DNA of 64,000 nucleotides. Origin: Candidatus Moraniibacteriota bacterium. GTDB taxonomy: Bacteria; Patescibacteriota; Minisyncoccia; Moranbacterales; UBA11712. The notes beneath the pieces were generated by a model. It searched no databases, was not told where the DNA came from, and saw nothing but the letters and a program-made list of their open reading frames with translations. The DNA lies in assembly GCA_030679895.1 (NCBI GenBank), contig JAUXSN010000039.1, forward strand, positions 34,128-98,127. The letters run 5' to 3'. Positions within the stretch are counted from its first letter, which is position 1, and the number at the start of each line of letters is the position of its first letter. Below, one piece after another: positions 1-23,400 of the stretch. A program made the position numbers and the translations under genes.

Positions 1-1167
1 AATTTTTGGTATATATACAGTCTTCTTGCCGGAACTTTTCTGGTCTCGCGTCTTCCGCTGGCTTTTATGCACAAAGATGCATATGCGAATTCTCGTGAAA
101 AAAATGACAACTATATATATCCGAATGTAAGTTTTATTATTGCTGCGAAAAACGAAGAGGAATCGATATACAAAACGATCGAGGCTTGTATGGAATCTGA
201 TTATCCTGCTGAAATGGAGTGCATTGCAATTGATGACGGATCAACCGATAAAACTCTCTCGGAAATGCAGCGGGCAAGTGTTGCGTTCGGCTCTGACGAG
301 GTAAGGGCAGTAACCCTCGGTGTTAATAAAGGAAAGCGCGAGGCTATGTTTGAAGGGGTGAGACTTTCAAAAAATGAAATTATTGTCTTTGTTGATTCCG
401 ACAGTTTTCTGGAAAAGGGGGCTTTGCGGTTGCTTATTCATCATTTCTCTGATGATAAGGTCGGAGCAGTTTCGGGAAATACCGGGGTTGCAAATCACTG
501 TTCAAATCTATTAACGAAAATGCAATCTATACGGTATGCGGTTTCATTCGATATCTTTAAATCCTCCGAAAGTTATTTTGGAGTTGTAACTTGCTGCCCC
601 GGCTGTTTTTCCGCTTATCGCATGAAAGCGATCACGCCGGTGCTTTCCTCGTGGCGCAATCAAATGTTCATGGGGACACGCAGCACTTTTGGTGATGATC
701 GGAGTCTTACGAATTTTGTGCTTCGAGATTGGAAAGTAGCTTATTGTGAAAGTGCAAAAGCGACTACTATTGTTCCTGAAAAATACATGAAGTTCTTGAA
801 GCAGCAACTCCGATGGAAAAAATCATGGATTCGCGAAGGATTTGTCTCGTCTTCATTCATGTGGAAAAAGCATCCGATAGCGGCATTGTCTTTTTATGTC
901 AATTTGATTTTGCCGACTCTAGGGCCATTCGTTGTCGGGTGGGTTCTATATATGACGATTGCGCATTATAACCTGCTATTTCTTATTACATTTTTATTTG
1001 GGGTTACAACAGTAGGGTTATTGTATAGCACCTTCCTTTTTATTATTCAAAGAGAAAAATATTGGTTATATATGCCTGCCTTTTCTATTTTTTATACACT
1101 AATAATGATATGGCAGATGCCATACGCAATCCTAACGCTTAGAAAAACCCACTGGGGTACAAGATAA
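1..1167 (+). CDS. Processive family-2 glycosyltransferase (NodC/hyaluronan/chitin-synthase-like), 5' end truncated by window edge
   Basis: Frame 1 is open from nt 1 into the ORF called at 67, and the upstream residues (FWYIYSLLAGTFLV) look like a TM helix. GT-A motifs DDGSTD and VDSDS are present, as is QQLRW (the QxxRW processive-GT2 signature), followed by C-terminal TM helices. Confidence 0.8.
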   Translation, partial: NFWYIYSLLAGTFLVSRLPLAFMHKDAYANSREKNDNYIYPNVSFIIAAKNEEESIYKTIEACMESDYPAEMECIAIDDGSTDKTLSEMQRASVAFGSDEVRAVTLGVNKGKREAMFEGVRLSKNEIIVFVDSDSFLEKGALRLLIHHFSDDKVGAVSGNTGVANHCSNLLTKMQSIRYAVSFDIFKSSESYFGVVTCCPGCFSAYRMKAITPVLSSWRNQMFMGTRSTFGDDRSLTNFVLRDWKVAYCESAKATTIVPEKYMKFLKQQLRWKKSWIREGFVSSSFMWKKHPIAALSFYVNLILPTLGPFVVGWVLYMTIAHYNLLFLITFLFGVTTVGLLYSTFLFIIQREKYWLYMPAFSIFYTLIMIWQMPYAILTLRKTHWGTR

Positions 1168-1170
1168 TTT

Positions 1171-4100
1171 ATGGCTGCGCAAAATAAGAAAACAATTCTC
1201 ATGATAACAATTGCAGTTCTGATATTATTGGTAGCTGCTTTTTCGTACCCATTTGGCAAGAGAGTCCGGGACATGATGTATACAAACTCTCGTCCTGTTG
1301 AATATGGCAAGGAGGTTATATATTCATATATCGAAGAAGGTGACATTCGTGTTGCAGACGAAATTTCTGAAAATAAATATGAAGTAAGTCGTTTCCAGCC
1401 TGTTCAAATTGACGAGTTAAAATGGAAAGAAGATCCATTTTCTGATTTATATTGGCGCTTCAATTTTTATAATCTGGAGCCTGTAAGAAATCTTCTTTTT
1501 GCTTGGGGGAAAACGGATAATCCGAAGTATAAGGATAAGTTAATAGAAATCACTGAATCATTTATAGATAATGGCATGAACGGACCATATTCTTGGGATT
1601 ATCACGGCGCGTCATTCAGAACCATGACACTTATTAATGTAAGGGAAAAACTTCGCCAAAAAAACGAATTGCCGGCTGACCTGGATAAAAAAATTATTGA
1701 TGCGCTGAAAACTCACGGAGACTTTTTGGCCAACCCAGATCATTTTGAAAAGGACTATAATCACGGTCTTGATCAGGCTGCCGCGCTGTATCTTCTAGCT
1801 GTCAATTATCCAAAACTGTCAGGGGCGGATGTTTGGCTAAAGCTATCTTCTGAACGAATGGCGGGGGTACTTTCTGGAATCATTGATGATGACGGAATCT
1901 TGGTTGAAAATTCTCCCTATTATCATCTTTATGTTCTAGAAAAAATATTGGACATCGATAAATATTTGAAAAAAAATAATTTAGCTATTAAAGGTTTTTC
2001 TGACGAGAAGGTGGACAAAATGGTGTCTTATGCTGTTTATATGTTACAACCCGATTTGAATGTGCCAACAATTGGCGCTTCTATCACGAGGCAGATTGGC
2101 TTGTCGGGAATATATAAAGAAATTGCAGCATCCCATCCGAATCTACTATATGTTTTGACACAAGGCGCCTACGGTGAAAAACCTTCGAACCTGAATGTCC
2201 AGTATCCAGTCAGTGGCGAGACCATAATGCGTTCTGGATGGGGAAGAGGAAAAGATTATATAAATCAGACCCAGCTTATTTTTGATGCAGGCAATTACAG
2301 GACCAATCACAGTGATCTTGATGCGCTTAGCTTCAATTTATTCAGCAAGGGTGTTGCATTGATGCCTGACGCAGGTCTTTATTCCTATGAACCGGGACCG
2401 TATCGCTCATATTTTCATGGTACAAAATCTCACAATACCGTCGTTGTTGATGGAAAAGATCAGAGTGTGGGAGATATAGCAACCTCGATGAAGGCTTCTC
2501 ACGGCTCTTTTCAGGAAGGACCTGGCTATGTTTATCAGTCTGGAGAGAGCAATCTTTACGCCGGAGTTTCTCATGAAAGAGCTGTTGCAATGATTGAGGA
2601 TTCCACGATACTTATATTTGACAACCTTAGATCATCTTCTGACCATACGTATGAGCAAATGTTTCACATTTTTCCAGATGCTAAAGTAAGTTCAGATGGG
2701 TTGACTTTCACAGCGCAAGGAGATAAACCCGAGCAATTATTAACTATAAAGCAATTTATTACTGACGGAGTCGAATTGCATACAACCATCGGTGATCAAA
2801 ATACGCCAAATAGCCTTTGTTCGTCTGAGTATAATAAGGCGCTTCCTTGCCATGCCCTTTCATATACTCAAAAAGGAAAACATGTCTCTTATGTAACAGC
2901 AGTCAGTATTGGCAAAAAAAAGACAGAAATTAAAGCAGAAAAAGACGGAGAAACTTTGACTATTAAGACAGATAAAGGTGAATACACTATAAAAATAAAC
3001 GAAGTGATGGGCGCGGAAAGAAAAACAGAAGTAGATAAAAAAAATGATGCATCTGCGATTTATTCAGAAGCTCAATCGAGTAGCTCGCTGAATATACCAA
3101 ATGAATGGAAAAATGTTACTGGATTTAATGGAGGTTCGGTGGCTGTCGACGGGAAGGAAAATAGTTTGGAAATAATGACACCCTTGGATGGATCAATAAT
3201 TGATGCGGTGAAAACTGCCAATCTGGATTTATCAAACAAAAATATATACTTCAAAATTAAAATTGACAAAACTTCAAACTTGCAAGGGATTGATATTGGC
3301 CTTTCAAATAATAATTGGAAAACAGATGCCAGATATAATATTGACGAAGTATTCAACTACCAATTTGCAAACAGAGAAAGCGATTGGTTACAATTCGGAG
3401 TCGGAAAGAGCGGTTTGCGGAAAGAAGAATTGGGGGGTTGGATAAAAAGCTCCCCATATTTTGACTGGTCAAGAGTTGACGCTGTAAAAATCACTGCTAG
3501 ATCAAAGCAGGGGCAACAATCCACAATAAATATCAAGGAATTCATATTGGTTCCTGATCAAAAGGAGGCTCGCGCGGTTATTGTATTTGATGATGGTTGG
3601 TCTTCAGTTATGGATGCGGCTACGAGTATGAACAAATATGGCATCAAGGGTAATGTCGGTGTTATAACTAACAGCATTGGAAAAAACAGCTATCTGACGC
3701 TGGATAATTTAAAAGAGCTCCAAAATAATTATGGCTGGAACATAGCGAACCATTCAAGTCTCCATAAAAATGCCTTTAACGATTATGAGTCTAACAATAA
3801 TTTGCAGGGGCTTGATGACGATGTGGTCGATGCCCTCCAATATTTGATTCAAAATGATATCAACTCTGCCCCCAACTGGTATATTTACCCAGATGGCAGT
3901 ACTGATGGTTCTATCAAAAAGATAATTAGTAAGTATTATAAATTTGGACGGGCGACATCGGGCATAACGCAATTATTCCCTTTTTCTGAGCCGCTCGAAG
4001 TGGGAGTATTTCCAGTATACAGTGATCGGGCTACGCCCGCCGATGTTCATAGCGCCATTAGCGATGCTATAAAGTACAACCAAACAATTTTCCTAATGTT

Positions 4101-4455
4101 TCACAAAATTTCAGAAGAGCAGCCCTCAATGTTCACAGAAGTTTCACAAAATGATTTTGACACAATTATAAACGACATAAATGCGCAAGGCATAAAAGTA
4201 GTTACTTTATCTGAACTAGATAAAGAAAATAACATACCGGAAACAGAATTTATGCTGCATTCCGCTGTTCCGGGGCAGATTAAATTAGATGTTTCCTCAA
4301 AGCGCATGTCCAATATATTCAGTTATGCTATACTCCAAATATGGGAATATCTAACAAATTCCGGAAAAAGCCTGGCTCAAGGCTTAAAATATATTTATTT
4401 TTTCTCTTTGTTGGGATTATATTTGGATCATCCTACTTTATTTTCATATTTTTAA
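1171..4455 (+). CDS. Multidomain exopolysaccharide-modifying protein: N-terminal TM anchor, heparinase II/III-like (alginate-lyase-like) domain, C-terminal polysaccharide deacetylase (CE4/NodB-like) domain
   Basis: The N-terminal hydrophobic segment is ILMITIAVLILLVAAF. DYNHGLDQAAALYLLA and NHSDLDALSFNLFSKGVALMPDAGLYSYEPGPY match the Hepar_II_III signature H.H.D..SF....G. The C-terminal VIVFDDGWSS...NHSSLH resembles CE4 deacetylase motifs. The gene starts 4 nt after the GT2 stop. Confidence 0.7.
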   Translation: MAAQNKKTILMITIAVLILLVAAFSYPFGKRVRDMMYTNSRPVEYGKEVIYSYIEEGDIRVADEISENKYEVSRFQPVQIDELKWKEDPFSDLYWRFNFYNLEPVRNLLFAWGKTDNPKYKDKLIEITESFIDNGMNGPYSWDYHGASFRTMTLINVREKLRQKNELPADLDKKIIDALKTHGDFLANPDHFEKDYNHGLDQAAALYLLAVNYPKLSGADVWLKLSSERMAGVLSGIIDDDGILVENSPYYHLYVLEKILDIDKYLKKNNLAIKGFSDEKVDKMVSYAVYMLQPDLNVPTIGASITRQIGLSGIYKEIAASHPNLLYVLTQGAYGEKPSNLNVQYPVSGETIMRSGWGRGKDYINQTQLIFDAGNYRTNHSDLDALSFNLFSKGVALMPDAGLYSYEPGPYRSYFHGTKSHNTVVVDGKDQSVGDIATSMKASHGSFQEGPGYVYQSGESNLYAGVSHERAVAMIEDSTILIFDNLRSSSDHTYEQMFHIFPDAKVSSDGLTFTAQGDKPEQLLTIKQFITDGVELHTTIGDQNTPNSLCSSEYNKALPCHALSYTQKGKHVSYVTAVSIGKKKTEIKAEKDGETLTIKTDKGEYTIKINEVMGAERKTEVDKKNDASAIYSEAQSSSSLNIPNEWKNVTGFNGGSVAVDGKENSLEIMTPLDGSIIDAVKTANLDLSNKNIYFKIKIDKTSNLQGIDIGLSNNNWKTDARYNIDEVFNYQFANRESDWLQFGVGKSGLRKEELGGWIKSSPYFDWSRVDAVKITARSKQGQQSTINIKEFILVPDQKEARAVIVFDDGWSSVMDAATSMNKYGIKGNVGVITNSIGKNSYLTLDNLKELQNNYGWNIANHSSLHKNAFNDYESNNNLQGLDDDVVDALQYLIQNDINSAPNWYIYPDGSTDGSIKKIISKYYKFGRATSGITQLFPFSEPLEVGVFPVYSDRATPADVHSAISDAIKYNQTIFLMFHKISEEQPSMFTEVSQNDFDTIINDINAQGIKVVTLSELDKENNIPETEFMLHSAVPGQIKLDVSSKRMSNIFSYAILQIWEYLTNSGKSLAQGLKYIYFFSLLGLYLDHPTLFSYF

Positions 4456-5336
4456 ATTTGAACCATCGGCTCTCAAATTCAACTACTGTTGATTCCGTAA
4501 CTCAAGGTTTAGTAGGCGCGGATTATATCATTGATCCAATTAATGAAAATAACATTAAAATGTTGTATCCAACGAAAGAAAATGGACGCGTCTGGAGCGC
4601 AAAATGGTCAAATGGAAATAAGGAGACCATTGCAAGCGGAGAACGCGATCCTTTTGATTCGGAGTTTATTGCGCGGGGAAACGGCGATGTCTCTATCGAT
4701 GGTGACGGTGTAGCGCAACTTCAAGGAGATTCTCCAAGAATGTATATCTACGATCCTGCCAAGGATAAAAAATGGAATAATGTTGAAGTTACCGTTTATG
4801 CCAAACGCATATCGGAAACGGAGTCGGTGAGCTACCAGGGGATAGTAATCGGTGCGAGAAGCGAACATCAGGATGCAACCCTAAAAAAACCCTGTCTCGG
4901 CGCGACATATTATGGAAGATTGCTCTATGATGGTCGGGCAGTTTTTCAAAAAGAAGTGATTCATGAAGGCGCATATAGCACCAATAAGCCATCAGAAAAT
5001 AATAAAGCGAAATGGAATACCCCCAATGGAACAATGCCAAAAAATGAGTGGATTGGAGTCAAATTTATTGTAAAAACTAACCCAGACGGAAAGTCAGTAA
5101 AACTAGAGCTCTATAGGGATTTAACAGATGGAAAAGATGGAGGAACATGGGAAAAAGTTGCTGAATATAATGATAACGGGAAATGGTCGCAAACAAACTC
5201 TGGCGCTGATGTCAAAGAAAAGTGCGGTTATCAGGCAAATAAAGTACTCTTAAAATCTGGCACCTCGGTATTTATTAGAAATGATAAAATAAAAAATGCG
5301 GAATATAAGTTATTCAGTATTAGAGAAATAGATTAG
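4341..5336 (+). CDS. Hypothetical membrane-anchored/secreted protein
   Basis: There is an N-terminal TM segment (IYLFFLFVGIIFGSSYFIFIFL) and no recognisable catalytic motif. The called start overlaps the upstream gene by 115 nt, and the next in-frame ATG (4560) lies after the TM segment, so the start is uncertain. Confidence 0.5.
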   Translation: MGISNKFRKKPGSRLKIYLFFLFVGIIFGSSYFIFIFLNLNHRLSNSTTVDSVTQGLVGADYIIDPINENNIKMLYPTKENGRVWSAKWSNGNKETIASGERDPFDSEFIARGNGDVSIDGDGVAQLQGDSPRMYIYDPAKDKKWNNVEVTVYAKRISETESVSYQGIVIGARSEHQDATLKKPCLGATYYGRLLYDGRAVFQKEVIHEGAYSTNKPSENNKAKWNTPNGTMPKNEWIGVKFIVKTNPDGKSVKLELYRDLTDGKDGGTWEKVAEYNDNGKWSQTNSGADVKEKCGYQANKVLLKSGTSVFIRNDKIKNAEYKLFSIREID

Positions 5337-5390: not shown

Positions 5391-5841
5391 ATTCAGATTC
5401 TTCTTGCAGCTTCTCTTAATTATGCCATAAAATTGGTGAAGGGGTGAAGTTATCCACATATTGGCTTGCTTTTTGCGGCACAGTTTGCTTTTATAAAGAC
5501 AGAAACAAAAAAGAAAAAAGAAGATTTTCAGGAAGAGGACTTCTTTTTATTTTGCAAAAACAATAAAAACAATGCTTATGCTCAATAAAAAGCATAACTT
5601 AAAAAAGGCCGGTCTAAAGTTGTCACAATAGTGGCGGGTTTGGATTGGCTTTTTTGTTTTCTCAAAATTCAAATGGGAAAATAAAAATTAAGCAGCTGAA
5701 TAATTTATGCCCTCTTAACGAGGGCGGTCTGGAGGAGGGCCTAAAAGATTTGTTGCTTATCAAAAAAAAGCCTTGAAAGGTCGAAGGCGACTGGCTGCCT
5801 CAAATGCGGGAAATAATAATTGGTAAAAATTAATTAAAACT

Positions 5842-6408
5842 ATGAAAAATATAATCAAAAGTCTGGTGATTGTCTTCGCCGTCGCGGCGGTGGCAAGCGT
5901 TGCGACTTATGCTTACTTTTCAAGTCAAGCAACGGTAACAGGCAATACTTATTCTACTGGAACGCTAGAAATTAGAGTAAATGGGCAGCCTTCAATAGCT
6001 GGATTTACTGCATCAAATATGGCGCCTGGCGATTGTAAAGCAGGAGAATTTACAGTAATGAATTATGGAGCGCCTTGGTTTGGTGGCCCAAGCACATTAA
6101 CCGCTGAAGAGCTTGTTATAAGCACCAATAATTTTGGTGGCGATACGAGTGGTTTATGTAATGCGCTAACAGCTGAAATTCAGAACTGTGCAGGGCCATG
6201 CGAAACCGCATATGCTACCGGACCAGTAAACGCTGTAAGTGAGGAAGATCTGCTAATGTCATGGTTTTCAAGTGGATTGGCTGCTGGAAATTCTGAAATT
6301 ATAAAATACGATGTGTGCTTGCCAGATACAGGTTCTGCTCAAGATTCATTACAGGGCAAAACTTGTACATTTGACTTTGTAGTTGACGCATACAACCCAA
6401 AAAGATAA
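5842..6408 (+). CDS. TasA/camelysin-like secreted fibre subunit with SipW-cognate-type signal peptide
   Basis: The N-terminus MKNIIKSLVIVFAVAAVASVATYAYFSSQATVTGNTYSTGTLEI fits the A.F.D....N.F..GTL pattern of TasA/CalY signal regions. An AGGTG-like RBS lies upstream. A paralog is at 6505 and a SipW peptidase at 7178. Confidence 0.65.
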   Translation: MKNIIKSLVIVFAVAAVASVATYAYFSSQATVTGNTYSTGTLEIRVNGQPSIAGFTASNMAPGDCKAGEFTVMNYGAPWFGGPSTLTAEELVISTNNFGGDTSGLCNALTAEIQNCAGPCETAYATGPVNAVSEEDLLMSWFSSGLAAGNSEIIKYDVCLPDTGSAQDSLQGKTCTFDFVVDAYNPKR

Positions 6409-6421
6409 TCCAATCTCTTTT

Positions 6422-6447
6422 CTCTCCGCGTGGCAGGGAACGGAGAG
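6422..6447 (+). terminator. Hairpin between the two TasA-like paralogs (ctctccg..cggagag)
   Basis: A 7-bp stem with a 12-nt loop sits 14 nt after the stop and upstream of the RBS (aaggaggtg) of the next gene. This placement suggests a partial terminator or attenuator. Confidence 0.35.
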
Positions 6448-6504
6448 ATGAGAGCGAGGATTTTGAAGCTCGCGAAACAAAAATAAAAGAAAGGAGGTGA
6501 AAAA

Positions 6505-7113
6505 ATGAAAAATATAATTCGAAGCTTGGTAGTTGTCTTTGCCGTTGCGGCGATTGCCGGAAGCGCGACATATGCGCTTTATCACGCGGAAGGCACAGTT
6601 TCTGGCGTAACCGCTTCAGCCAGCGATATGGATCTGAAGATAGATTCAAATCCGGATCCGAGTGGGTATAATTGGTCGGATGGCTTTGCCGTCACCAACG
6701 CGCAACTTGAAGCGCTGGGGCTTGACAGCTTGAAGCCGGGCAGTCATGGCCAGCAGATATTCGACATCAAAAATGTTGCAGGCGATGTTGATGGCGCTGC
6801 CTCAATAAAGTTGCATAGGACGTCTGCATGGAGCGATCTTGTGAACAACCTAAGGTTCACTGTATATTTCGATCCTGATAACAACGGAGCCTTTGGATCA
6901 GCTCTTGTGTCAGGCACTCTGGGTGAATTCGAGGGCAATACTTATACTCTCGGTCAGATCGTAGGTACTGCAACCCAAGAAAATACAGGTGGCGTTTTGG
7001 GAAAAAATGCTAGTGTCAAAATAGAATGGGACATTCCGAGTACTGCCGGAAACGAGATAATGGGAGACAGCGTCACATTTGACATCACTTTTGGTCTTGA
7101 TCAGACTCCATAA
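6505..7113 (+). CDS. TasA/camelysin-like secreted fibre subunit (paralog)
   Basis: MKNIIRSLVVVFAVAAIAGSATYALYHAEGTVSG is near-identical to the signal region of 5842. A strong RBS (aaaggaggtg) lies upstream. Confidence 0.65.
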   Translation: MKNIIRSLVVVFAVAAIAGSATYALYHAEGTVSGVTASASDMDLKIDSNPDPSGYNWSDGFAVTNAQLEALGLDSLKPGSHGQQIFDIKNVAGDVDGAASIKLHRTSAWSDLVNNLRFTVYFDPDNNGAFGSALVSGTLGEFEGNTYTLGQIVGTATQENTGGVLGKNASVKIEWDIPSTAGNEIMGDSVTFDITFGLDQTP

Positions 7114-7177
7114 TTCCCTTTCAGATCACATCTCTTGAAGGTGTGGTCGATAAAGGAAAATATTATCAAATTAATCC

Positions 7178-7783
7178 ATGAAATCAATCGGAAAAATATT
7201 CAAGTATGCCGTAAATACGATCTTGGTCTTGCTGGTTCTTCTCGGCGTGTTTGTCGTGTTCTCCTTTGTTCCTTTTCCGGGGAATTACAAGGTTTTCACG
7301 GTTATGTCGGGGTCAATGGAGCCGACGATCAAGACGGGGAGTTTGATTTTCGTGAAGCCGATGGCGGATTATGGCGTTGGAGACATCGTGACGAGGCGGA
7401 CGACCGATGCCAAAGTGACGATCACGCACAGAATTGTTTCCAAGGAAGAAATTCAGGGGAAAATTGCATTTGAAACGAAAGGCGACGCGAACGACGCGCC
7501 GGACGGGGAAAAATTCACGGCCGAGGGAATTGTCGGAAAATCAATCTTGAAAATTCCGTGGCTGGGGTATCCGGTGGGATACGCGAAGACCACGCCTGGA
7601 TTGATATTGCTGATAGTGATTCCGGCGGTGATCATCATCTATGACGAGATGAACAAGATAAAAGATGAGATCAAGAAGAAGTTCAGATATCGAAAAGCGG
7701 TTGCCGCAAGAAATGATAACAAAAATAGTGAAGATGTGATCGAGGAAATTAAAAAGGAAGAGACACCCCGTAAAATCATTTAA
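7178..7783 (+). CDS. sipW: Signal peptidase I, SipW/archaeal type (S26)
   Basis: An N-terminal TM segment is followed by the MSGSMEPT motif containing the catalytic Ser (S26 box B) and a C-terminal TM. The gene sits between the TasA-like genes and a large SipW-cognate protein. Confidence 0.75.
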   Translation: MKSIGKIFKYAVNTILVLLVLLGVFVVFSFVPFPGNYKVFTVMSGSMEPTIKTGSLIFVKPMADYGVGDIVTRRTTDAKVTITHRIVSKEEIQGKIAFETKGDANDAPDGEKFTAEGIVGKSILKIPWLGYPVGYAKTTPGLILLIVIPAVIIIYDEMNKIKDEIKKKFRYRKAVAARNDNKNSEDVIEEIKKEETPRKII

Positions 7784-7788
7784 ATCAG

Positions 7789-9795
7789 ATGAAGCGAATA
7801 ATCAGAAAAAAATTCAGGAGGTTCTGGAGGTCGGTGATCAACAGGCGATTAGTAAAGTACGCCTCTCGTTTCGGTCTGGCCGTTTTCCTGCTGGCAATGG
7901 TTTTGAGTTTTGGAAAAATCCAGGGGACAAATTCTTTTTTCATGGACACGGCGACTGTGGCAGGAAATGAGATTTCAGCCGGATATTGGATTCCGGTTTT
8001 GACGATGACCGTTTCGCCAAAAAATCCCGATGGGCAGAACAATTTTTATGTTTCTCATCCCTGCGTGACACTTGAAGCGAAATTGGGAGGCTCTGTCGCG
8101 TCGCTTTCGGAAGTGGATATATTTTATGAATTCTCGAACGACGGCAATCCGGTTTCGGGCGGAACGAAATACGACGGAACCTGTGTTTCGATTCCCGACG
8201 GAAACCCGACTTATTTTCAGGCGATTGCCGTGAACAAATTGAATTCCGACTGGAAAAGCAATGTCGTGAATGATCAGTTCAAGGTTGACACGCAATGTCC
8301 GGTTGTTGAAATCACAAATCCTGACAGCGGTGACGATTTGAGCGGTTCGGTTGAAATCCGCGGCACTGTGACGGACGCCAATCCGCACCACTACTGGCTG
8401 GTGATCGAAAATTCATCCGGCGCGAAAGTCGCGGGTCCGGGAACGGTGAACGATGCGAATTCTTTCACGGACAAGAAATTTTTCGACTGGGACACGACGG
8501 CGGTTCTGGACGGAGATTATAAAATAAAGCTCGAAGCGCGCGACGCCGCGGGAAACAAATGCCCGAATCAGGCGCCGGTTCTTGCCGATCCGAATGATCC
8601 AAACGATTCAGTTGATTGGATTGATGTGACTGTGGCCAACACGCCGGTTGTTTCTGCCGGTGATGTGATCATCAATGAAGTGATGTGGATGGGAAGCTTT
8701 GCGCATCCACATGATGAATGGATTGAACTCAAGAATACAACCGGACATCCGATAAACGTGAAAAATTGGAATATCGAGGGAGCAGTTGAAGGAAGCGGCG
8801 GGCATCTCGAAATTGCCGGAAACACGGGACACGAAGGCGACGACATGATCATCCCCGCGCACGGATACTTTCTTATTGCAAACTATAACCGAGATTCATC
8901 GGATATAAATGTTGATGTGGATTTGGTGAAAACTAGTATAAGCCTCAATGATGAATATGACGACAACGGCCCGTTGGTTTTGAAAGATACTTCAGATCAA
9001 ACGATTGACGCGACTGCGGCGCCGACAGGACACAGTTGGCCGGCGGGCATTCATGGACTTGTCGTTCCCGGCGGGATATTGCATTGGTCAATGGAAAGAA
9101 ACAACACTCCGTCAAGCGGCTGGCACACCTGCGATCCTACGGCGATGACGCCAGCCCAATTTCTAACGATGAAAAGCTATTGGGATTGGGACGCCTTATT
9201 GTTCAACTGCGGCACGCCGGGGCATGCCAATCTTTCCAAAAACGATCCTTCCAAAAGTGACATTGAAGAATATTTCAATAAAAGTGAAATAAAAGAGGAT
9301 GTGGTTTTGGAGCCGCTTGAGAAAAGTGGAAATGATGGTGTTGAAGCGTTGAAAATAACGAAAAAAGTCCCGATAAAAGTTGTTGGCGCGCCGGATGTTG
9401 CGGAGGGCTTGAAATACAAAATCGACCAGCGGATAAAAAAAGTCAATCTTTCCGGAGATTTTCCGGACAAGGAAATAATCGTAGATTTAGCCAAACTGGG
9501 ACTCATTGAAAAAACCGGCGAGATCAAAATCAGGATCAGCGACCTCGATTTACCGGATGGTGTGGAAGTCGTTTCGCAGAAAGACAACGGGCTGGTGCTT
9601 TTGATTACGGTTGAAAAGCAAAAAGACAAGGTTGCGAAAGTCGCGAAGAAAAACAATAAGTCCGGAAAAAAGTCGAAGAAAAAAGGAAAAGCCGAGCTGA
9701 AACAGGCGGAGCAGGCCGCTCTTCCCGATAGTGGAAAAGAAAGCGGGAGCGGAGACGGCGATCCGAATAACAATAATAAAAATCCCATTACATGA
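7789..9795 (+). CDS. Large secreted protein with SipW-cognate-like signal region and a lamin-tail domain (LTD)
   Basis: An N-terminal TM is followed by GTNSFFMDTATVAGNEISAGYW, which resembles the TasA signal pattern. VIINEVMWMGS...DEWIELKNTTGHPINVKNWNIEG matches the LTD signature. The C-terminus is lysine-rich. Confidence 0.55.
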   Translation: MKRIIRKKFRRFWRSVINRRLVKYASRFGLAVFLLAMVLSFGKIQGTNSFFMDTATVAGNEISAGYWIPVLTMTVSPKNPDGQNNFYVSHPCVTLEAKLGGSVASLSEVDIFYEFSNDGNPVSGGTKYDGTCVSIPDGNPTYFQAIAVNKLNSDWKSNVVNDQFKVDTQCPVVEITNPDSGDDLSGSVEIRGTVTDANPHHYWLVIENSSGAKVAGPGTVNDANSFTDKKFFDWDTTAVLDGDYKIKLEARDAAGNKCPNQAPVLADPNDPNDSVDWIDVTVANTPVVSAGDVIINEVMWMGSFAHPHDEWIELKNTTGHPINVKNWNIEGAVEGSGGHLEIAGNTGHEGDDMIIPAHGYFLIANYNRDSSDINVDVDLVKTSISLNDEYDDNGPLVLKDTSDQTIDATAAPTGHSWPAGIHGLVVPGGILHWSMERNNTPSSGWHTCDPTAMTPAQFLTMKSYWDWDALLFNCGTPGHANLSKNDPSKSDIEEYFNKSEIKEDVVLEPLEKSGNDGVEALKITKKVPIKVVGAPDVAEGLKYKIDQRIKKVNLSGDFPDKEIIVDLAKLGLIEKTGEIKIRISDLDLPDGVEVVSQKDNGLVLLITVEKQKDKVAKVAKKNNKSGKKSKKKGKAELKQAEQAALPDSGKESGSGDGDPNNNNKNPIT

Positions 9796-10871
9796 AAATG
9801 CTTTCAGAAAAAAAATTTGAAAATAGATTTTATATTTTTGGGCTCGCTATCTTGTTTTGTGGGTTGATGTTTTTCAGTTTTTCTGAAAAAGCCGAAGCAA
9901 AAACCGTGACTGACGGAAATCTTGCCATAACTTATAGCGATCCTTTGTTTGCAGTTACGAACGCGGTGCCGGGACAAACCTATTTTTCAGATATGACAGT
10001 GGAAAATTTGGGCGGAGCGGACAGAAAATTCCAATTTGAACTGAATATTGCGGCGAGTTCCAGCAATCTGACGGAAAGGCTTTTTCTCAAAATATACAGC
10101 CTTGACGAAATCGGCAAGGAATATTGCGAATACGGCTGCTTGGCAAACGAGGACATTAAGAGTCTTGACGGAGGCGAATTTGAAATAAAGACAATGCCTG
10201 GAAATTCCACGAAAAATTTCCGCTTCGCGCTGGCTTTTGATCCCGACGCGGGAAATGATTTTCAGAACGTGAGCGCCGGGTTTGATATGAAAATAGGATT
10301 TGAGGATGAATTTCAGGGAGTTACTGGCGGCGGAGGGGGAGGCAATGGAGCTACCGCGGCCGGAACAGCTCCGACGGGATTTTTGACATCGCTGTTTTCT
10401 GCCGTTTCCACGGGGACGACAGCCGGAGCAGAAACAGAAGGAGAAATGCCGCAAGGGCAGGAAGGCGAAGTTAAAGGTGAAGAAACAACGCCGGGACAAG
10501 TCGAGGGTATTTCAGTGTCATCCTGCCAAAGTTGGCCGAAATGGATTTGGGTTTTGATGCTGATTGCTTATTTCGCCGCGTTTTTGTGGCGGACATTTTC
10601 GAATTTATCGGGGCAGATTGAGAAGCGCGAAATGAGATGGGGATGGCAGGCAATTTTGGCAGGCGTGGCGTTTCTTGTCTGGTATTTCTTTGACAAGTGC
10701 CGTGAGTTTCAATGGTTTGTGATCATCGCTCTTGTCGGCGGCGCAGTGGTTTATCTTTTTTATCTTTATTTGTTCAGGAATAATATTCGCGAAGAGCACG
10801 CGGATATAGAAAGCGGATCCGGCCAAGAACCGCCGGAAAATCCAACTGATCAGGCGTCGCCGATTGTATAG
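9792..10871 (+). CDS. Membrane-anchored TasA-like beta-sandwich protein (possible fibre anchor)
   Basis: The start overlaps the upstream stop (ATGA). A signal-like N-terminus is followed by AVTNAVPGQTYFSDMTVENLG (TasA-body-like), a Gly-rich linker and three C-terminal TM helices. Confidence 0.45.
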   Translation: MKMLSEKKFENRFYIFGLAILFCGLMFFSFSEKAEAKTVTDGNLAITYSDPLFAVTNAVPGQTYFSDMTVENLGGADRKFQFELNIAASSSNLTERLFLKIYSLDEIGKEYCEYGCLANEDIKSLDGGEFEIKTMPGNSTKNFRFALAFDPDAGNDFQNVSAGFDMKIGFEDEFQGVTGGGGGGNGATAAGTAPTGFLTSLFSAVSTGTTAGAETEGEMPQGQEGEVKGEETTPGQVEGISVSSCQSWPKWIWVLMLIAYFAAFLWRTFSNLSGQIEKREMRWGWQAILAGVAFLVWYFFDKCREFQWFVIIALVGGAVVYLFYLYLFRNNIREEHADIESGSGQEPPENPTDQASPIV

Positions 10872-11099: not shown

Positions 11100-12590
11100 A
11101 TGAATGATGATTTGAATATTTTTTTAGCAAAATTTGATATATCGGAGAAGGACTTTGAATCCACAAATTTGAAGTGGGAAGATCTGCAATCCATAAAAGA
11201 AGATTATAAAAAAATCAAAAAAGAATTATATCTTATCGCCAGGTATATAGAGGAAAAATTGCACACTTTGGACATAGTGCATTCAGTCAGATATAGGATA
11301 AAAGACTCCGAACATCTTTTAGCCAAGATCATAAGAAAGAAAATTGAGGATCCGCATCGCGAGATCACGATCCGCAACTATAAATCTTCGATAACGGATC
11401 TAATCGGGATAAGAGCCATTCATCTGTTCAAGGAAGACTGGGTGTTTATTCATAAATTCATAGAGGAAAATTGGGATTTGAACGAGCAACCACTTGCTTA
11501 TATTAGGGAAGGAGACGCAGCTCCTTGTGTCGAGGAATACGAAAAGTATAAATGCAATATCGAATTGCATCCCCATGGCTATAGGTCGGTTCATTACCTG
11601 ATCCGCTCATGTCCCGGCAAGGATCCCTATATTGCTGAAATACAAGTCAGAACTATTTTTGAAGAAGGATGGAGCGAAATAGATCATACGATAAAATATC
11701 CCAGTAACATCGTTAATCCTCTATTGAATAAATTTCTTGATACATTCAATGTGCTGGCCGGGAATTCTGATCAGATGGGATCTTTTGTGAGGCGCTTGAA
11801 AGATGATTTGCTGAAAGGCACAGAAAAGATTGAAGAGTATGAAAAATTGACCGAAAAGAATACGGAAATAATCAATGATCTGCAGAAAAGAATCGCGGGA
11901 ACCATTGGCGAACTCAATTCCAAGATCCGAAATGCCGAATCAAAAATAAATGCTTTGACCTCTCGCGGAATTGCCGCGGAACCATTCAAGAATATTCTCA
12001 GCGAAGTGAGGGTCAAAGCTTCCAGATTTGAGCTAATGATGGCCGCCAATCCTCATGAAGCGGCAAATCTTCTCGAATCAGCCGAACAAAAACTGGAACG
12101 ATTGGAAAAGTTGCTCGAGATGACTATCGAAGAAGATAATCATGCAAATAATACTGATGATAATAGCGAAGAAGAAGCCGGTTCTTATAAAAATAATGTC
12201 AATCGCTTCATTCATAACTTGAAAACCATAGCGGAGCTGGAGGGAAGCATTGCGCCCAAAACGCTAACGAATGTGGAGGGGCAGGCTGATTCAGGGGCAA
12301 AAATTGAAAACGCAGTCAATGAGATCAGCAGTAGAAGCGGATTTGCAAAATTTCTTATCGGGCCAAAATATAAAGGCATCAAATCTTTGAATGTTGAGAT
12401 AGTTGCCAATCAAGCAAGAATCAAGACTCTGACTGACGCAGCGAATTCGATAACTGATCCTGCCGTGAAGTTTGTTCTGCAGAAGCAAATTGGTCTGTTC
12501 ACTCGCGAGAACAATAAGCTGCGGGCGTTTGTTGCCAAAAGAAAGCGAAGCGCAAGTTTGTTCGGGTGGGCGGCCAAGCTATTTAATTAA
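11100..12590 (+). CDS. RelA/SpoT-domain nucleotide pyrophosphokinase (small alarmone synthetase / toxSAS-like) with ~270-aa C-terminal coiled-coil extension
   Basis: The synthetase-domain motifs are intact: HSVRYRIKDSEHLLAKIIRK, ITDLIGIRAIHLF (Asp retained), HGYRSVHYL and AEIQVRTIFEEGW (catalytic Glu retained). The C-terminal half has heptad-like K/E-rich repeats. Confidence 0.7.
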   Translation: MNDDLNIFLAKFDISEKDFESTNLKWEDLQSIKEDYKKIKKELYLIARYIEEKLHTLDIVHSVRYRIKDSEHLLAKIIRKKIEDPHREITIRNYKSSITDLIGIRAIHLFKEDWVFIHKFIEENWDLNEQPLAYIREGDAAPCVEEYEKYKCNIELHPHGYRSVHYLIRSCPGKDPYIAEIQVRTIFEEGWSEIDHTIKYPSNIVNPLLNKFLDTFNVLAGNSDQMGSFVRRLKDDLLKGTEKIEEYEKLTEKNTEIINDLQKRIAGTIGELNSKIRNAESKINALTSRGIAAEPFKNILSEVRVKASRFELMMAANPHEAANLLESAEQKLERLEKLLEMTIEEDNHANNTDDNSEEEAGSYKNNVNRFIHNLKTIAELEGSIAPKTLTNVEGQADSGAKIENAVNEISSRSGFAKFLIGPKYKGIKSLNVEIVANQARIKTLTDAANSITDPAVKFVLQKQIGLFTRENNKLRAFVAKRKRSASLFGWAAKLFN

Positions 12591-12592
12591 AG

Positions 12593-12622
12593 TTTCGCCA
12601 AGGTCGAACCTTGGCGGGAAAT
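12593..12622. repeat. Repeat family A copy 1: tttcgccaaggtcgaaccttggcgggaaat hairpin directly after a stop codon
   Basis: The stem is 8 bp (cgccaagg/ccttggcg). Copies at 14555-14584 and 17401-17431 carry a compensatory base change that preserves pairing. Confidence 0.7.
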
Positions 12623-12733
12623 CGAAACAACTCTGTCACTCGCGCGATGGGGTTGTTTTTTCATTTCCAAAAATTAAAATATCTTGAAGATAAAAATTTG
12701 CTTTTGCATAATAGAATATAGGCTTGTATCCCG

Positions 12734-12754
12734 CCCCAACATTCAATGTTGGGG
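12734..12754. repeat. REP-like palindrome ccccaacattcaatgttgggg
   Basis: A 10-bp inverted repeat belonging to the same family as the CCTAACATT(C/G)AATGTTAGGG copies at 15760 and 63808. Confidence 0.7.
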
Positions 12755-12826
12755 TAATGAACTCTGGGAATTCACCTGCCAAGTTATCCACAGTATGCAA
12801 TTTAGACAGGACAAGCGAAAAGGAGT

Positions 12827-14551
12827 ATGATACATACAGCGATAAAAATTAAAAATAAAAGCATGAAAAAAACAGCAATGTTTGCGCTTGCGTTTGTTTT
12901 TCTCCTTGGGACAACAGGCGTAATCGCAAAAAACAACGGAGACGGCAAGAATTTTCACAAGCCTCTCCAAGTGAACAAGGAGAAAGTGAAGCATTTTGCA
13001 AAGAAACCGATTTCTAACAGCGACCGGAAAAGAGGGGATTTGCTCGAGGAGATGATAATCAAGGAAAAACCCGCCAACGTTAAACCGGCACCCACCGATC
13101 CCACTTCCGGAGGAGTGACCGGAAATCTGGGTGACCAAATGGAACCTGGCGAAGGCAAAAAATATGCCATCGTGATCGGGCTTGCCAACTATCCCGGGAC
13201 GAGCATAGTCGAAAGCGACGAGATCCTCCCTGATTTGTGCGTATCGCCAATCGCGGAAAATGACGCTTCGGTATATGAAGGGACGAACGAAGTAAAAGCC
13301 AACTGCAAAGACGGTGACAGCGTGAATATGGAAAAGACTTTGATCGAAAAATACGGCTTCGCGCCGAGCAATGTTTTTCGCTTGAGCGATTCAGAAGCCA
13401 CATTTTCTGCAATCGAAGAAAAAATAATGTACTTAGTCGGAGGAATAGATAGCAAGGAATTTAATCACACAGGAATTTTGAAACCGGAAGACGAATTAGT
13501 ATTCTTTTTCAGCGGTCATGGAGCTTTGAGTGAGGATGATAGTATTGATGGGGACATTGACGAAAATGACGATGGAGGCATTGTTGTCTATGACGAAGAG
13601 TATAGTGATGATTCATACATGAGCACAGATCCTGCGTCTACGTACGCAGCAGACTATAACAAAAATGGCTATAGTGACAGTGCCTACATCTGGGACGGCC
13701 AATTGCGAGCGTGGTTTGCGAACGCTGCCACTGACCGGATTTTCTTCGCCTTTGACACCTGCCGCGCGGAAGAAATGGATGATTTGGTATGGACGGATAT
13801 CTATAGGACCACAAAGGAACCAGACCGCGTTCTCGCTTTCTCCAGCGGGAAAGAAGAAAGTTCCTATACCTACTATCTCGGTGGGGCCAATAATAGTGGC
13901 AATATTCACGACAGCGAAGGCCTATTCTCGCACTATTTCGTTTTGCGGGCGATGTATGACGGATATGCGGACGGATTCAATCCCATCAATAAACGGAGCA
14001 AGGATCCTCTCAAATACGACGGCAAGGTGGCAGTGGAAGAAGCTTTCAGCTATGCCTATCCGCTGGTGAGAGAAGCGTCAAGCAATAACCAAACGCCGCA
14101 TCTCGATGATCTTTTCACAAATGACCTTCTGTTGGGAACGCCGCCGGAATTGGTGAAAACTGTGTATGTTTACGCAAACAATAGCGAAGAAACAGCACCT
14201 TATACTTTGAAGAGCGGCGTGAAATATCTTCTGGAAGCAAGCAAAGTTGCCGCAGCCGACGAAACTAACACGATTCGTTTTGACGCCAAATATTCAACCA
14301 ATACCACGACTGGTCTTTGGACAGATCTGGTTGATCAATCTTATGCGGACGCTACAATCTATCCAACGCTTTTGGAATTGTTTATGAACGACGCATCTGT
14401 CGATTGGGGAGAATACAACGACGAACATAAGTACAGAAAGGAAGTGACTGGCAGCGACTCTTTGCTCCCCTCCGTGAACTTCAAAATCAACGACACTGAT
14501 TATTCTGACAACAGCGAAGAGTTGCTAGTTAAAATTTATCAATTAGACTAA
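12827..14551 (+). CDS. Secreted clan-CD cysteine peptidase (caspase/metacaspase-like, C14)
   Basis: A signal peptide (MKKTAMFALAFVFLLGTTGVIA) is followed by KKYAIVIGLANYP, FFFSGHG (catalytic His) and FAFDTCRAE (catalytic Cys), which are typical of Peptidase_C14. The start may instead be the internal Met at 12863. Confidence 0.6.
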   Translation: MIHTAIKIKNKSMKKTAMFALAFVFLLGTTGVIAKNNGDGKNFHKPLQVNKEKVKHFAKKPISNSDRKRGDLLEEMIIKEKPANVKPAPTDPTSGGVTGNLGDQMEPGEGKKYAIVIGLANYPGTSIVESDEILPDLCVSPIAENDASVYEGTNEVKANCKDGDSVNMEKTLIEKYGFAPSNVFRLSDSEATFSAIEEKIMYLVGGIDSKEFNHTGILKPEDELVFFFSGHGALSEDDSIDGDIDENDDGGIVVYDEEYSDDSYMSTDPASTYAADYNKNGYSDSAYIWDGQLRAWFANAATDRIFFAFDTCRAEEMDDLVWTDIYRTTKEPDRVLAFSSGKEESSYTYYLGGANNSGNIHDSEGLFSHYFVLRAMYDGYADGFNPINKRSKDPLKYDGKVAVEEAFSYAYPLVREASSNNQTPHLDDLFTNDLLLGTPPELVKTVYVYANNSEETAPYTLKSGVKYLLEASKVAAADETNTIRFDAKYSTNTTTGLWTDLVDQSYADATIYPTLLELFMNDASVDWGEYNDEHKYRKEVTGSDSLLPSVNFKINDTDYSDNSEELLVKIYQLD

Positions 14552-14554
14552 CGC

Positions 14555-14584
14555 TTCGCTAAGGTTCGACCTTAGCGGGAAAAT
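14555..14584. repeat. Repeat family A copy 2 (cttcgctaaggttcgaccttagcgggaaaat)
   Basis: Lies 4 nt after the stop of 12827-14551. The stem cgctaagg/ccttagcg covaries with copy 1. Confidence 0.7.
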
Positions 14585-14664
14585 AGCCGAAAGAGTTCCG
14601 ACATGGGGTCGGGACTCTTTTTCTACTTGGAAACTCGGTTTCCAAGTAAATCGTCCTTGATTTT

Positions 14665-14683
14665 CCTAAAGTTAAGCTTTAGG
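14665..14683. repeat. REP-like palindrome cctaaagttaagctttagg
   Basis: CCTAA..TTAGG arms surround a 9-nt loop. The same family occurs at 39538/39561 with the loop in both orientations. Confidence 0.7.
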
Positions 14684-14687
14684 AATT

Positions 14688-14734
14688 CAAGAAAAACAAC
14701 CCCTTTGCTCGCGAGCAGAGGGGCTGTTTTTGTT
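14688..14734. repeat. Repeat family C copy 3 (caagaaaaacaacccctttgctcgcgagcagaggggctgtttttgtt)
   Basis: The flanks are conserved, the middle varies with compensatory changes, and a T-run follows. A TATAAT-like -10 box lies about 15 nt downstream. Confidence 0.7.
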
Positions 14735-14779
14735 ACCCGCTATTTATGATATAATATAAAAAAAATCGAATAATAAACT

Positions 14780-15478
14780 ATGTCCGATGACAATCAAAAG
14801 ATAATTGAAGAAGCTGAAGCGTTTATCAAAGAGCACAAGAAAAGTCTGATTGCTCGCTTTGCTGATCCGGAAAAGTATCATTCAGTTGAACATCCGATTT
14901 CGCTTTTTATGGCTGGCTCCCCAGGCGCTGGCAAGACCGAAGTTTCCAAGCGGCTCATTGAGCAGTTCGCTGACAACGCTCCTGTAAGAATTGATGCGGA
15001 TGATATCCGCGAAATGTTTCCGAGCTACACTGGCGTCAATTCGCATATTTTCCAGCGCGCCTGCACGACAGGCGTCAATAAGCTATTCGATTATGTTTTG
15101 GATCACAAGCTCAATGTCATCCTGGATGGAACTTTCGCCTATGAGCGGGCGATGGAAAATATCGAGCGGTCTTTGAAGCGCGATCGGCGCGTTATCATCT
15201 ATTATCTTTTTCAGGATCCGGTCATCGCTTGGAAATTCACCAAAATTCGCGAGGAAACCGAGGGTCGCCGGGTTTCAAAAGAAGTTTTTATTTGCTCTTT
15301 TCTCCGTGCTCGTGAAAATGTAAATGAGGCCAAAGCGCATTTTGGCGAAAAAATTGAATTAAACATGATTATCAAGGATTTCACCAACAATTTCGAGAAA
15401 GTTTTTTCGAATATTGGGAGTATTGATAAATATCTGCCAAGGGTGTATACTAAAAACGAACTTGAAAAAATATTATGA
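14780..15478 (+). CDS. Zeta-toxin family P-loop kinase
   Basis: The Walker A motif MAGSPGAGKT, the RIDADDIRE region and DGTF match the Zeta_toxin (UNAG kinase) fold. The protein is 232 aa long. Confidence 0.7.
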   Translation: MSDDNQKIIEEAEAFIKEHKKSLIARFADPEKYHSVEHPISLFMAGSPGAGKTEVSKRLIEQFADNAPVRIDADDIREMFPSYTGVNSHIFQRACTTGVNKLFDYVLDHKLNVILDGTFAYERAMENIERSLKRDRRVIIYYLFQDPVIAWKFTKIREETEGRRVSKEVFICSFLRARENVNEAKAHFGEKIELNMIIKDFTNNFEKVFSNIGSIDKYLPRVYTKNELEKIL

Positions 15479-15779: not shown

Positions 15780-15877
15780 TAAATAATGTTAGGGTGAATA
15801 GGTGAAAATCTTGATATTTTGGCTCGGACGTGCTATCAAGTGTCTATCAAACCTATGCCGGGGAGGGCAAATTCATT

Positions 15878-16621
15878 ATGAAAGTAAAGGCGGTTTTGGC
15901 CGGATTCTTCGTGATTTGCGGCTTATTGTTCTTTAACAAGCCCGTAATGGCGGGTTATCAACTCAATAAAGGCCAGCTGGAGCGGGAAATCAGCGCGGCT
16001 GGGCTGCGGCTTATCGGCGAAACTGATTATTATGGCGTTCCGTGCCTTGAGGTGGAGCTTCCGCTTGACGAAGCGATTTTTCAGATCTGCCGGAAAGTTC
16101 CGACGCTGAACGCGTTCTATCTTGAAACGCGGGAAGCGATCGCCATTATGAATGGCCTCAATCCTTTTTATCCGCGGAGCCAGCGAGGCCGTCAGTTCGA
16201 TACGGTCAGAAAAACCATCCTGATTCCGCTGGATACGACCATCCAGCCCAAGCTTTTTCCTTCATCCAACGGGAACTTCGCGTCATACGCCCAGGCTATT
16301 TTTGTGGACCGGGAGAAACAAGCGCTGGCTTATTATGAACACGGCCAATTGGTTGCCTGCTTTCCCGTTTCCACGGGCCGTTCCGGAAAGGGAACTCCAG
16401 CCATGCAAGGCTGGATAAAGCTCAAGGACGAGGACCATATTTCTTCAATCTATGACGTCCTTATGCCGTTTTCACTATTACTGGCAAGCCCCTATTTTGT
16501 TCACGCAGGCGTAATGCCGGGGATGCCGGATTCAGCCGGATGCATTAGGATGTTCACGGAGCATGCCAGATGGCTTTTTGACCGAATTGAAAGCCGGAAA
16601 ACGCGGTTCAAAGTGGCTTGA
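15878..16621 (+). CDS. L,D-transpeptidase (YkuD-domain) protein, secreted
   Basis: VSTGRSGKGTP, HAG and SAGCIRM (catalytic Cys) are present. The start was moved to MKVKAVLAGFF (signal peptide), which follows GGAGGG. Confidence 0.65.
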   Translation: MKVKAVLAGFFVICGLLFFNKPVMAGYQLNKGQLEREISAAGLRLIGETDYYGVPCLEVELPLDEAIFQICRKVPTLNAFYLETREAIAIMNGLNPFYPRSQRGRQFDTVRKTILIPLDTTIQPKLFPSSNGNFASYAQAIFVDREKQALAYYEHGQLVACFPVSTGRSGKGTPAMQGWIKLKDEDHISSIYDVLMPFSLLLASPYFVHAGVMPGMPDSAGCIRMFTEHARWLFDRIESRKTRFKVA

Positions 16622-16655
16622 GAACAAAATCTCAATTTTGATCCGGAGGAAACAT

Positions 16656-23395: not shown

Positions 23396-23400
23396 AAAGT

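Follow-up and report, generated by a model that had tools for sequence, protein, structure and literature searches.

We report an operon of five co-directional open reading frames (ORFs; here A to E) on the plus strand, at positions 5842-10871 of a 64,000-nucleotide stretch of a Candidatus Moraniibacteriota genome (assembly GCA_030679895.1, contig JAUXSN010000039.1, positions 34,128 to 98,127; "the window" refers to this whole stretch). The operon is of the TasA/SipW kind, with a layout that differs from that in Bacillus. We believe, at odds of about two in three, that its products form a SipW-processed donor-strand fibre of the TasA type on the Candidatus Moranbacteria cell surface, through a polar assembly proposed here in which the accessory protein D would come first, the subunits A and B would form the polymer and the anchored protein E would come last.

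The principle behind this reading is strand complementation. TasA polymerises via its mature N-terminal residues 28-38, which insert into the next subunit, and the N-terminus of TapA resembles the TasA donor strand and nucleates the fibre in the same way (PMC9674648, PMC10151520). The initial annotation of the window had proposed a five-gene TasA/SipW-type operon, parallel to the Bacillus tapA-sipW-tasA operon and having a different accessory set. All five ORFs are found at the coordinates given above, and the parallel holds, the operon being conserved across lineages of the Candidate Phyla Radiation (CPR).

Results

The TasA-type subunits and their peptidase

A passes the curated cut-offs of both models that define its type: PF12389 at 36.8 bits (cut-off 22.5), in a match that covers profile positions 19-75 of 196 only, and the SipW-cognate signal TIGR04088 at 24.5 bits (cut-off 19). 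The protein can be divided into a signal peptide (residues 1-24, with a predicted cleavage between TYA and YF), a donor-strand segment (approximately 25-37) and a jelly-roll core (38-188). Its AlphaFold2 model, based on 51 homologs, has a predicted local distance difference test score (pLDDT) of 87, and of more than 93 in the core. The top Foldseek match of the model in the PDB is the cryo-EM TasA fibre 8AUR (E 2.4e-7, probability 1.0), followed by TasA monomer structures and then by donor-strand pilins (Fim, Cfa, AbpA, CanA). The family profile of A likewise finds TasA in the PDB (E 7e-7); the match of the A and B profiles to AbpX is weak (E 0.005-0.006). Of the 93 homologs of A, almost all belong to metagenome bins of Patescibacteria, and the name "TasA family protein" has already been given to several. 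Against the TasA equivalog model NF046066, A scores 12.2 bits at a cut-off of 450. We therefore assign A to the TasA/camelysin family as a member that is not an ortholog of B. subtilis TasA. The 23 closest members of the A family all have Cys65 and Cys159, which suggests a structural disulfide; A of the window has four more (107, 117, 121 and 176).

The Pfam family bears the name "Camelysin metallo-endopeptidase", from which one might take A and B to be not structural subunits but secreted proteins, either metalloproteases of the camelysin type (M73) or antimicrobial proteins. We consider this very improbable. A has neither a histidine nor an HExxH-type motif, and was rejected as a metalloprotease on these grounds; moreover, the Pfam match is confined to the N-terminal strand region, and in the structural comparison TasA in its fibre form ranks first, ahead of the donor-strand pilins.

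B has no Pfam or NCBIfam match on its own. Its first 24 residues are, however, 79% identical to those of A (19/24), and its first 59 residues are 46% identical. When the B-position proteins of seven loci are combined in a profile, it matches the A family along the entire length (hhalign probability 99.9%, E 3.5e-35) and TasA in the PDB over the whole chain (E 1.8e-7); the donor-strand segment of B is degenerate. B is thus classed as a divergent TasA paralog. The presence of two TasA-like proteins with near-identical SipW-type signals, as first proposed, is borne out for A by PF12389 and TIGR04088 and for B by the signal residues together with the profile match.

The peptidase C scores 114.1 bits (E 5e-33) against TIGR02228, whose cut-off is 51.85, and 26.7 bits against the bacterial LepB-type model TIGR02227, whose cut-off is 47. 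In 13 orthologs of C the residues S46 (in SGSM), H84 (in THR) and D103/N105 (in GDxN) are invariant, and there is no catalytic lysine. Transmembrane (TM) segments are found at both the N- and the C-terminal end, with a K/E-rich cytoplasmic tail. The Bacillus SipW equivalog NF046067 gives 111.3 bits at a cut-off of 190. C is classified from these results as a signal peptidase I of the SipW type, i.e., of the endoplasmic reticulum (ER)/archaeal type, which is the same type as SipW and not its ortholog. The SipW signal peptidase of the initial annotation is confirmed in this sense by TIGR02228 and the Ser-His set; a classification as a generic LepB-type enzyme was not obtained.

The putative donor strand across the operon

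Cleavage of A, predicted after T22-Y23-A24, would expose the N-terminus YFSSQATVTGNTYSTG, which holds the family-invariant residues F26, A30 and N35. In the monomer model this segment is a coil (pLDDT approximately 54-82). We presume from its sequence conservation that the strand has a polymerising role. A profile of residues 8-42 of A was searched over 1179 ORFs (those of the window and of all loci described below). Below an E-value of 0.1 it finds only genes in the A, B and D positions, the next unrelated ORF being at 0.72. In the window, B is found at 1.1e-4 and D at 0.016, and there is no match to E; the short homologs of D reach 6e-10, and 5 of the 10 D proteins are below 0.1.

In D, a long signal (residues 1-49, with a predicted cleavage between TNS and FF) is followed by residues 50-67, FFMDTATVAGNEISAGYW, a putative mimic of the donor strand of A; D 50-65 (FFMDTATVAGNEISAG) and A 25-40 are identical at 8 of 16 positions. 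All ten D-position proteins have a related N-terminal motif, most of them in the form TN[A/S] followed by [FY][FY]x[DS]xAx[VI]xxNx[FI]xxG(Y)W. The lamin tail domain (LTD) of D matches PF00932 at 44.3 bits (cut-off 34.3, E 2.5e-11), and an LTD-type region is present in every D-position protein examined. The shortest homologs of D (211-254 residues) are essentially a signal, the strand and the LTD.

The other domains of D are an immunoglobulin (Ig)-like one at approximately 68-170 and a sub-threshold Big_7-like one at 171-247; the LTD extends to approximately 470 and is followed by a beta domain (522-601) weakly similar to bL25/Ctc-C and by a Lys-rich tail. The C-terminal region (9352-9795, residues 522-668) was also compared with PF14693, with an E-value of 9e-4, which is below the cut-off; a homolog, P0100, carries a precomputed PF14693 assignment. 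The "LPDSG" of D is not followed by a hydrophobic segment and is not a sortase signal. An NCBI entry, [quoted passage not shown] (P0094), has the same sequence as D (100% identity).

D was initially annotated as a giant fibre subunit of 668 residues with the same signal motif and an LTD. The LTD is confirmed; the motif is clear at the family level and marginal in the window protein alone, which has no TIGR04088 match. The role of a subunit does not hold: residues 66-170 have no similarity to the A family (hhalign probability 0.2%), so that D as a TasA-fold subunit was rejected, and what it has instead is the strand mimic with Ig-like and LTD domains. D shares with TapA the long signal followed by an N-terminus resembling the donor strand of the cognate subunit, and no TapA-related match was found for it in Pfam, NCBIfam or the PDB. 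The likeness is one of function: by analogy, we regard D as the functional counterpart of TapA and as the probable starter or tip protein of the fibre.

The anchored protein E

E gives no library match alone. Compared as a profile, the E-position proteins match the A family (hhalign probability 98.7%, E 4.4e-16; E 40-170 against A 38-183), and the top PDB match of the AlphaFold2 model is again the TasA fibre 8AUR (E 2.8e-6). The model has a beta ectodomain at 35-169 (pLDDT approximately 75-89), a disordered linker at 172-244 and three membrane helices (250-270, 284-301 and 307 to about 330). In terms of sequence these are a generic signal peptide (predicted cleavage between AEA and KT), a TasA-like ectodomain (approximately 37-172), a G/T/E-rich linker and a three-TM module (approximately 245-330). 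The membrane-anchored TasA-like protein proposed at the outset is therefore recovered by the alignment to the A family, the 8AUR match and the three C-terminal helices. E is identical (100% over 99% of its length) to the NCBI entry [quoted passage not shown] (P0214).

Neither TIGR04088 nor the A-derived profile detects a SipW-cognate motif in E. After the predicted cleavage, the first core strand is preceded by 0-6 residues in 17 of 18 homologs, the remaining one being truncated at its N-terminus, and the alignment of the E profile to that of A begins at A residue 38. E is thus predicted to have the acceptor fold but no donor strand. The missing SipW motif and donor segment point to the role of a terminator or anchor, and E is probably the membrane-anchored base subunit.

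The membrane module of E is more conserved than its ectodomain and has the invariant residues C245, W248, P249, W251, W253, D301, C303, R304 and W308; conserved cysteine pairs are C112/C116 in the ectodomain and C245/C303 in the module. This three-helix unit of about 90 residues has no Pfam family. It was found in 120 cluster representatives (of 1.84 billion searched), always at the C-terminus, in hosts of three sizes: about 170-200 residues (mostly the module itself), about 300-370 residues (E-like) and 900-1900 residues (adhesin-like), the latter including proteins with SpaA, SdrD-B, Big, HYR, beta-helix and cadherin-like domains. It looks like a general surface-anchor module, as far as can be judged from its hosts, and may represent a domain of CPR bacteria for surface anchoring or sorting that has so far not been described. 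A second gene of this type, small and with little beyond the module, lies in one of the related loci (L002, 14490-15101).

In two other related loci, L011 and L013, the E-type proteins end in LPRTG and LPITG, each followed by a hydrophobic stretch and R/K, and in L009 the same layout follows LAATG; these ends resemble sortase signals. E of the window has no LPXTG motif, so it is not assigned a sortase anchor, and ends in the three-TM module.

Proposed assembly

Taken in the order D, A/B polymer, E, the polarity that we infer for the fibre is as follows. C would cleave A, B and D after a T-x-A/S site, thereby exposing the N-terminal strands. D, like TapA, would nucleate the fibre by donating its strand to the first A subunit; it would end at the distal tip, where the LTD and Ig-like domains could serve as an adhesin. 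Each A, and sometimes B, would then insert its strand into the subunit that emerges next at the membrane, with the fibre growing at its base. E would accept the last strand and, having none to give, would terminate the fibre and tie it to the cell.

The roles of the two ends could also be reversed, with E as a membrane assembly platform or nucleator and D as a cell-proximal anchor that binds the wall through its Lys-rich tail and is not a distal tip adhesin. It is true that TapA colocalises with the B. subtilis cell envelope, that the C-terminal tail of D is strongly basic, and that the higher conservation of the E module relative to the ectodomain hints at an active role. On the other hand, under the TasA mechanism a chain of strand exchange cannot begin with a donor-less subunit, the module of E also ends many unrelated adhesins, as fits a passive anchor, and the minimal D homologs have no basic tail. 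We find the reversed arrangement improbable and retain the one with D at the tip and E at the base.

Conservation and gene fusions

Seventeen loci (cited here by L numbers) were collected by looking up exact proteins and by scanning the GTDB species genomes. One of them (L001) is a near-identical fragment of the A-B-C region of the window and another (L004) duplicates L003, so that there are 15 distinct relatives and, counting the window, 16 loci. The order A, (second TasA-like gene), C, D, E recurs in the 15 relatives; 8 of the 16 loci have the second TasA-like gene. The syntenic bins belong to Moraniibacteriota, Andersenbacteria, Berkelbacteria, WWE3, Saccharibacteria and unclassified Patescibacteria. 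Since the flanks differ between loci, the unit extends from A to E. Judging from identical lengths of the longest contig (e.g., 254,552, 47,364, 7,472 and 15,406 bp), eight further E homologs may lie on the same contigs as homologs of D or A.

In several relatives the genes are fused. SipW is fused to E in L011 (8556-9926) and L013 (8628-10070); it is fused to D, with the TM segment, donor motif and LTD, in the proteins P0181, P0196 and P0200; and in P0158 and P0191 the signal, the strand, a TasA-like domain and the LTD are in a single chain. Fusions of this kind link the peptidase, the LTD protein and the fibre fold in function, and those of SipW to its presumed substrates imply cleavage in cis.

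The conservation of E bears on another explanation, which is that the product is a released scaffold of the biofilm matrix, as in Bacillus subtilis. The A/B mesh, nucleated by D, would then be accompanied by the exopolysaccharide made upstream, and E would be an unrelated, self-complemented surface protein that shares the fold. An exopolysaccharide-type cluster does lie directly upstream, L003 likewise has genes for a family 2 glycosyltransferase (GT2) and a family 18 glycoside hydrolase (GH18) upstream of its TasA operon, several loci lack E, and among characterised systems the nearest ones form matrix or bundling fibres. Yet E is syntenic, its start overlaps the end of D (translational coupling), and it is fused to SipW in two lineages; every form of E carries cell-anchoring signals; and the precise absence of the donor segment is hard to explain if E is unrelated to the assembly. 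We consider the released scaffold unlikely, albeit less so than the reversed arrangement, and prefer the cell-anchored fibre. The upstream cluster may provide a matrix polysaccharide as a partner of the fibre.

Hairpins and expression

The stem-loop between A and B had been read initially as setting the stoichiometry of the subunits. In the window it is weak alone (z about -1.5, no U-tract). A strong hairpin nevertheless occupies this site in 16 of 16 loci, and in every one of them the 70 nucleotides after the stop codon of the major-subunit gene are predicted to be much more stable than their shuffles, with a mean z-score of -4.8 and 14 of 16 below -3. The control, made up of the other genes of the window that have a gap of 50 nucleotides or more behind them, has a mean of -1.35, with 27% below -3. 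The conserved position of the hairpin is thus supported, and its mode of action is a matter of interpretation. We presume that the hairpins after A and B, together with the packing of C, D and E (a 5-nucleotide gap between C and D, and a 4-nucleotide overlap of the E start with the D stop), would set a high expression of A and a low expression of the accessory genes.

The stem sequences vary by lineage. Several loci from distant CPR lineages share the arms TTTTAGTCCCG...CGGGACAATAAAG, which occur once per locus and at the post-subunit site only: L007 (8558-8594), L008 (8555-8590), L016 (1711-1749), L010 (4026-4062), L017 (748-796) and L005 (10568-10616). Judging from this distribution, the shared hairpin may be a specific RNA element or protein-binding site and not a generic terminator. 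RNAalifold gave no consensus for the post-A hairpins, since the loop lengths differ and MAFFT misaligned the arms; the z-scores above were for this reason computed per sequence. Rfam has no family over the hairpins or the 5' leader. Scans for sigma-70 promoters and terminators gave counts little above those in shuffles (13 vs 8.9 and 11 vs 6.7) and were not used.

B is preceded by a strong Shine-Dalgarno sequence, AAAGGAGGTG (6480-6504). A has no recognisable one: the AT-rich leader AATTAATTAAAACT stands before its ATG (5820-5841), which is odd for the presumed most abundant product.

Table 1. Features of the operon in window coordinates, with the support for each
Feature	Position	Strand	Support
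A, major TasA-like subunit, 188 residues	5842..6408	+	PF12389, TIGR04088, AlphaFold2/Foldseek, family profile
Stem-loop directly 3' of the A stop codon	6415..6454	+	13 bp with one bulge; outer pairing to 6408-6461
B, divergent TasA-fold paralog, 202 residues	6505..7113	+	Signal peptide identity, profile-profile match
Second stem-loop, 3' of the B stop codon	7117..7156	+	10-bp inner and 5-bp outer stem; z -3.1
C, SipW-type (ER/archaeal-type) signal peptidase I, 201 residues	7178..7783	+	TIGR02228, catalytic residues
D, accessory protein, 668 residues	7789..9795	+	PF00932, N-terminal motif, NCBI identity
Putative donor-strand mimic of D, residues 50-67	7936..7989	+	Read from sequence; family pattern; profile match at 46-65
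Lamin tail domain of D, residues 289-408	8653..9012	+	PF00932
E, surface-anchored TasA-fold protein (predicted), 359 residues	9792..10871	+	hhalign, AlphaFold2/Foldseek, TM helices
C-terminal membrane module of E, residues 242-336	10515..10799	+	Residue conservation among E homologs

Neighbouring genes

The window is densely coding, nearly all on the plus strand, with a GC content of about 43%. It holds no paralogs of A to E outside the operon, and there is no sortase gene among the approximately 20 window proteins scanned against Pfam.

The upstream exopolysaccharide-type cluster (67-5336) consists of a GT2/chitin-synthase-like glycosyltransferase (67-1167), a protein of 1094 residues in which heparinase II/III N and C domains are fused to a polysaccharide deacetylase (1171-4455), and, at 4341-5336, a 331-residue secreted protein without a family match. 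The latter overlaps the preceding ORF by 115 nucleotides, so its true start is probably later.

Downstream, at 11100-15478, there are a 496-residue protein with a RelA_SpoT domain and a long coiled C-terminal extension (small alarmone synthetase-like), a secreted protein of 574 residues with a weak caspase-like match, and a Zeta-toxin-family kinase. They have the appearance of stress or toxin genes, and their position beside the operon is not shared by other loci. PADLOC gave only weak caspase and PDC matches on the flanking genes, and the flanks were judged to be outside the system. Further on lie two adjacent genes for YkuD-type L,D-transpeptidases (15830-17399), pointing to peptidoglycan remodelling, and a cluster of HlyD, an ABC ATPase and two MacB-FtsX permeases (19846-24696), pointing to an export system. 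Outliers in composition, relative to an average of about 0.43, are found at 30001-32000 (GC 0.557; an ORF of 778 residues at 29410-31746) and at 54001-56000 (GC 0.307).

Discussion

Compared with tapA-sipW-tasA of B. subtilis, the operon has in common a TasA-fold major subunit with a SipW-cognate signal and an ER-type peptidase encoded beside it, as well as an accessory protein whose N-terminus, after a long signal, would mimic the donor strand of the subunit, as in TapA. The differences are in the order of genes, in the subunit and in the accessory set. The gene for the major subunit is the first here and the last in Bacillus; A is smaller than TasA (164 vs 234 mature residues) and falls short of the TasA equivalog model; D, unlike TapA, has no detectable homology to it beyond the strand and carries an LTD and Ig-like domains; and the anchored, donor-less TasA-fold protein E is an addition with no Bacillus counterpart.

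In the Bacillus cereus group, sipW-tasA-calY places two TasA/camelysin paralogs beside SipW and has no known TapA ortholog, which is similar to A, B and C. Neither an LTD protein nor a membrane-anchored TasA-fold protein is known from it.

The archaeal bundling pili, AbpA/AbpB of Pyrobaculum and AbpX, have TasA-related jelly-roll subunits that polymerise by a donor strand, as we propose here. The likeness of A to AbpA is structural and weak only (Foldseek E 0.03), and the archaeal operon, unlike the present one, has no dedicated signal peptidase. AbpB is a larger accessory protein proposed as filament starter and adhesin (PMC9245690).

With the chaperone-usher pili (Pap/Fim) there is an analogy only. 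The features in common would be a donor-only or tip component, a polymerising rod subunit, minor subunits, a basal terminator (PapH in Pap pili, which are likewise assembled tip first) and a hairpin after the gene for the major subunit, and the Fim and Cfa pilins are secondary Foldseek matches of A. The proteins are, however, not demonstrably homologous, and there is no chaperone, usher or outer membrane here. Pfam and NCBIfam scans found no chaperone or usher domain in the operon or in the flanking proteins, so that the system is not counted among the chaperone-usher pili. The E-type proteins of L011, L013 and L009 end like the LPXTG basal pilin of sortase pili; in contrast to these, the subunits are presumably joined by strand exchange and not by isopeptide bonds, and E of the window has the three-TM module.

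Several observations weigh against the fibre and its polarity as we propose them. TIGR04088 has no match in B, D or E, and the motif in D of the window is marginal on its own (E 0.016 with the N-terminal profile). The Foldseek template modelling scores to TasA are modest, 0.55/0.46 for A and lower for full-length E. E is missing in L003, L005 and L006, i.e., anchoring is not universal, and where it is present it might be permanently self-complemented and never take up a strand. The insertion of strands from D into A and from A into E is deduced from sequence alone. Finally, the hairpins have no U-tracts, and termination or attenuation is at most a possible role for them.

It is tempting to propose more, namely, that CPR bacteria have here a minimal and self-contained polar donor-strand pilus that dispenses with a chaperone, an usher and a sortase: the peptidase would free the strands, the LTD protein would both prime the fibre and form its tip, growth would occur at the base, and a donor-less protein of the TasA fold would terminate the fibre and fix it through a dedicated membrane or wall anchor. 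We advance this extended version only tentatively, and with clearly less confidence than the fibre itself. An attachment fibre of an epibiont is a plausible function.

Part of this is already known. PF12389 homologs in Patescibacteria were reported previously (Wang et al. 2022), and A and D have been named by the NCBI pipeline. In our literature searches, TasA combined with Patescibacteria yields only this PF12389 survey; no paper was found that combines SipW with a lamin tail domain; nothing relevant on SipW or camelysin in CPR bacteria was among the top matches; and the architecture of the operon was not found in the searchable papers. If the polarity model is wrong, this is just another TasA/SipW locus, already recognised by automated annotation.

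Conclusions

The attachment of CPR/Patescibacteria to hosts and surfaces is largely credited to type IV pili, and a conserved TasA-type operon would add a second candidate appendage. The proposed division of labour is between an LTD protein that would donate the strand, subunits that would polymerise and an anchor that would only accept. Both the bacterial lamin tail domains and a new three-TM C-terminal anchor module are thereby given a concrete functional context. The strand complementation of TasA and TapA would be extended beyond Bacillus and archaea, and, if the reading as a polar pilus is true, the episymbiotic ultra-small bacteria would have a second attachment organelle besides type IV pili.

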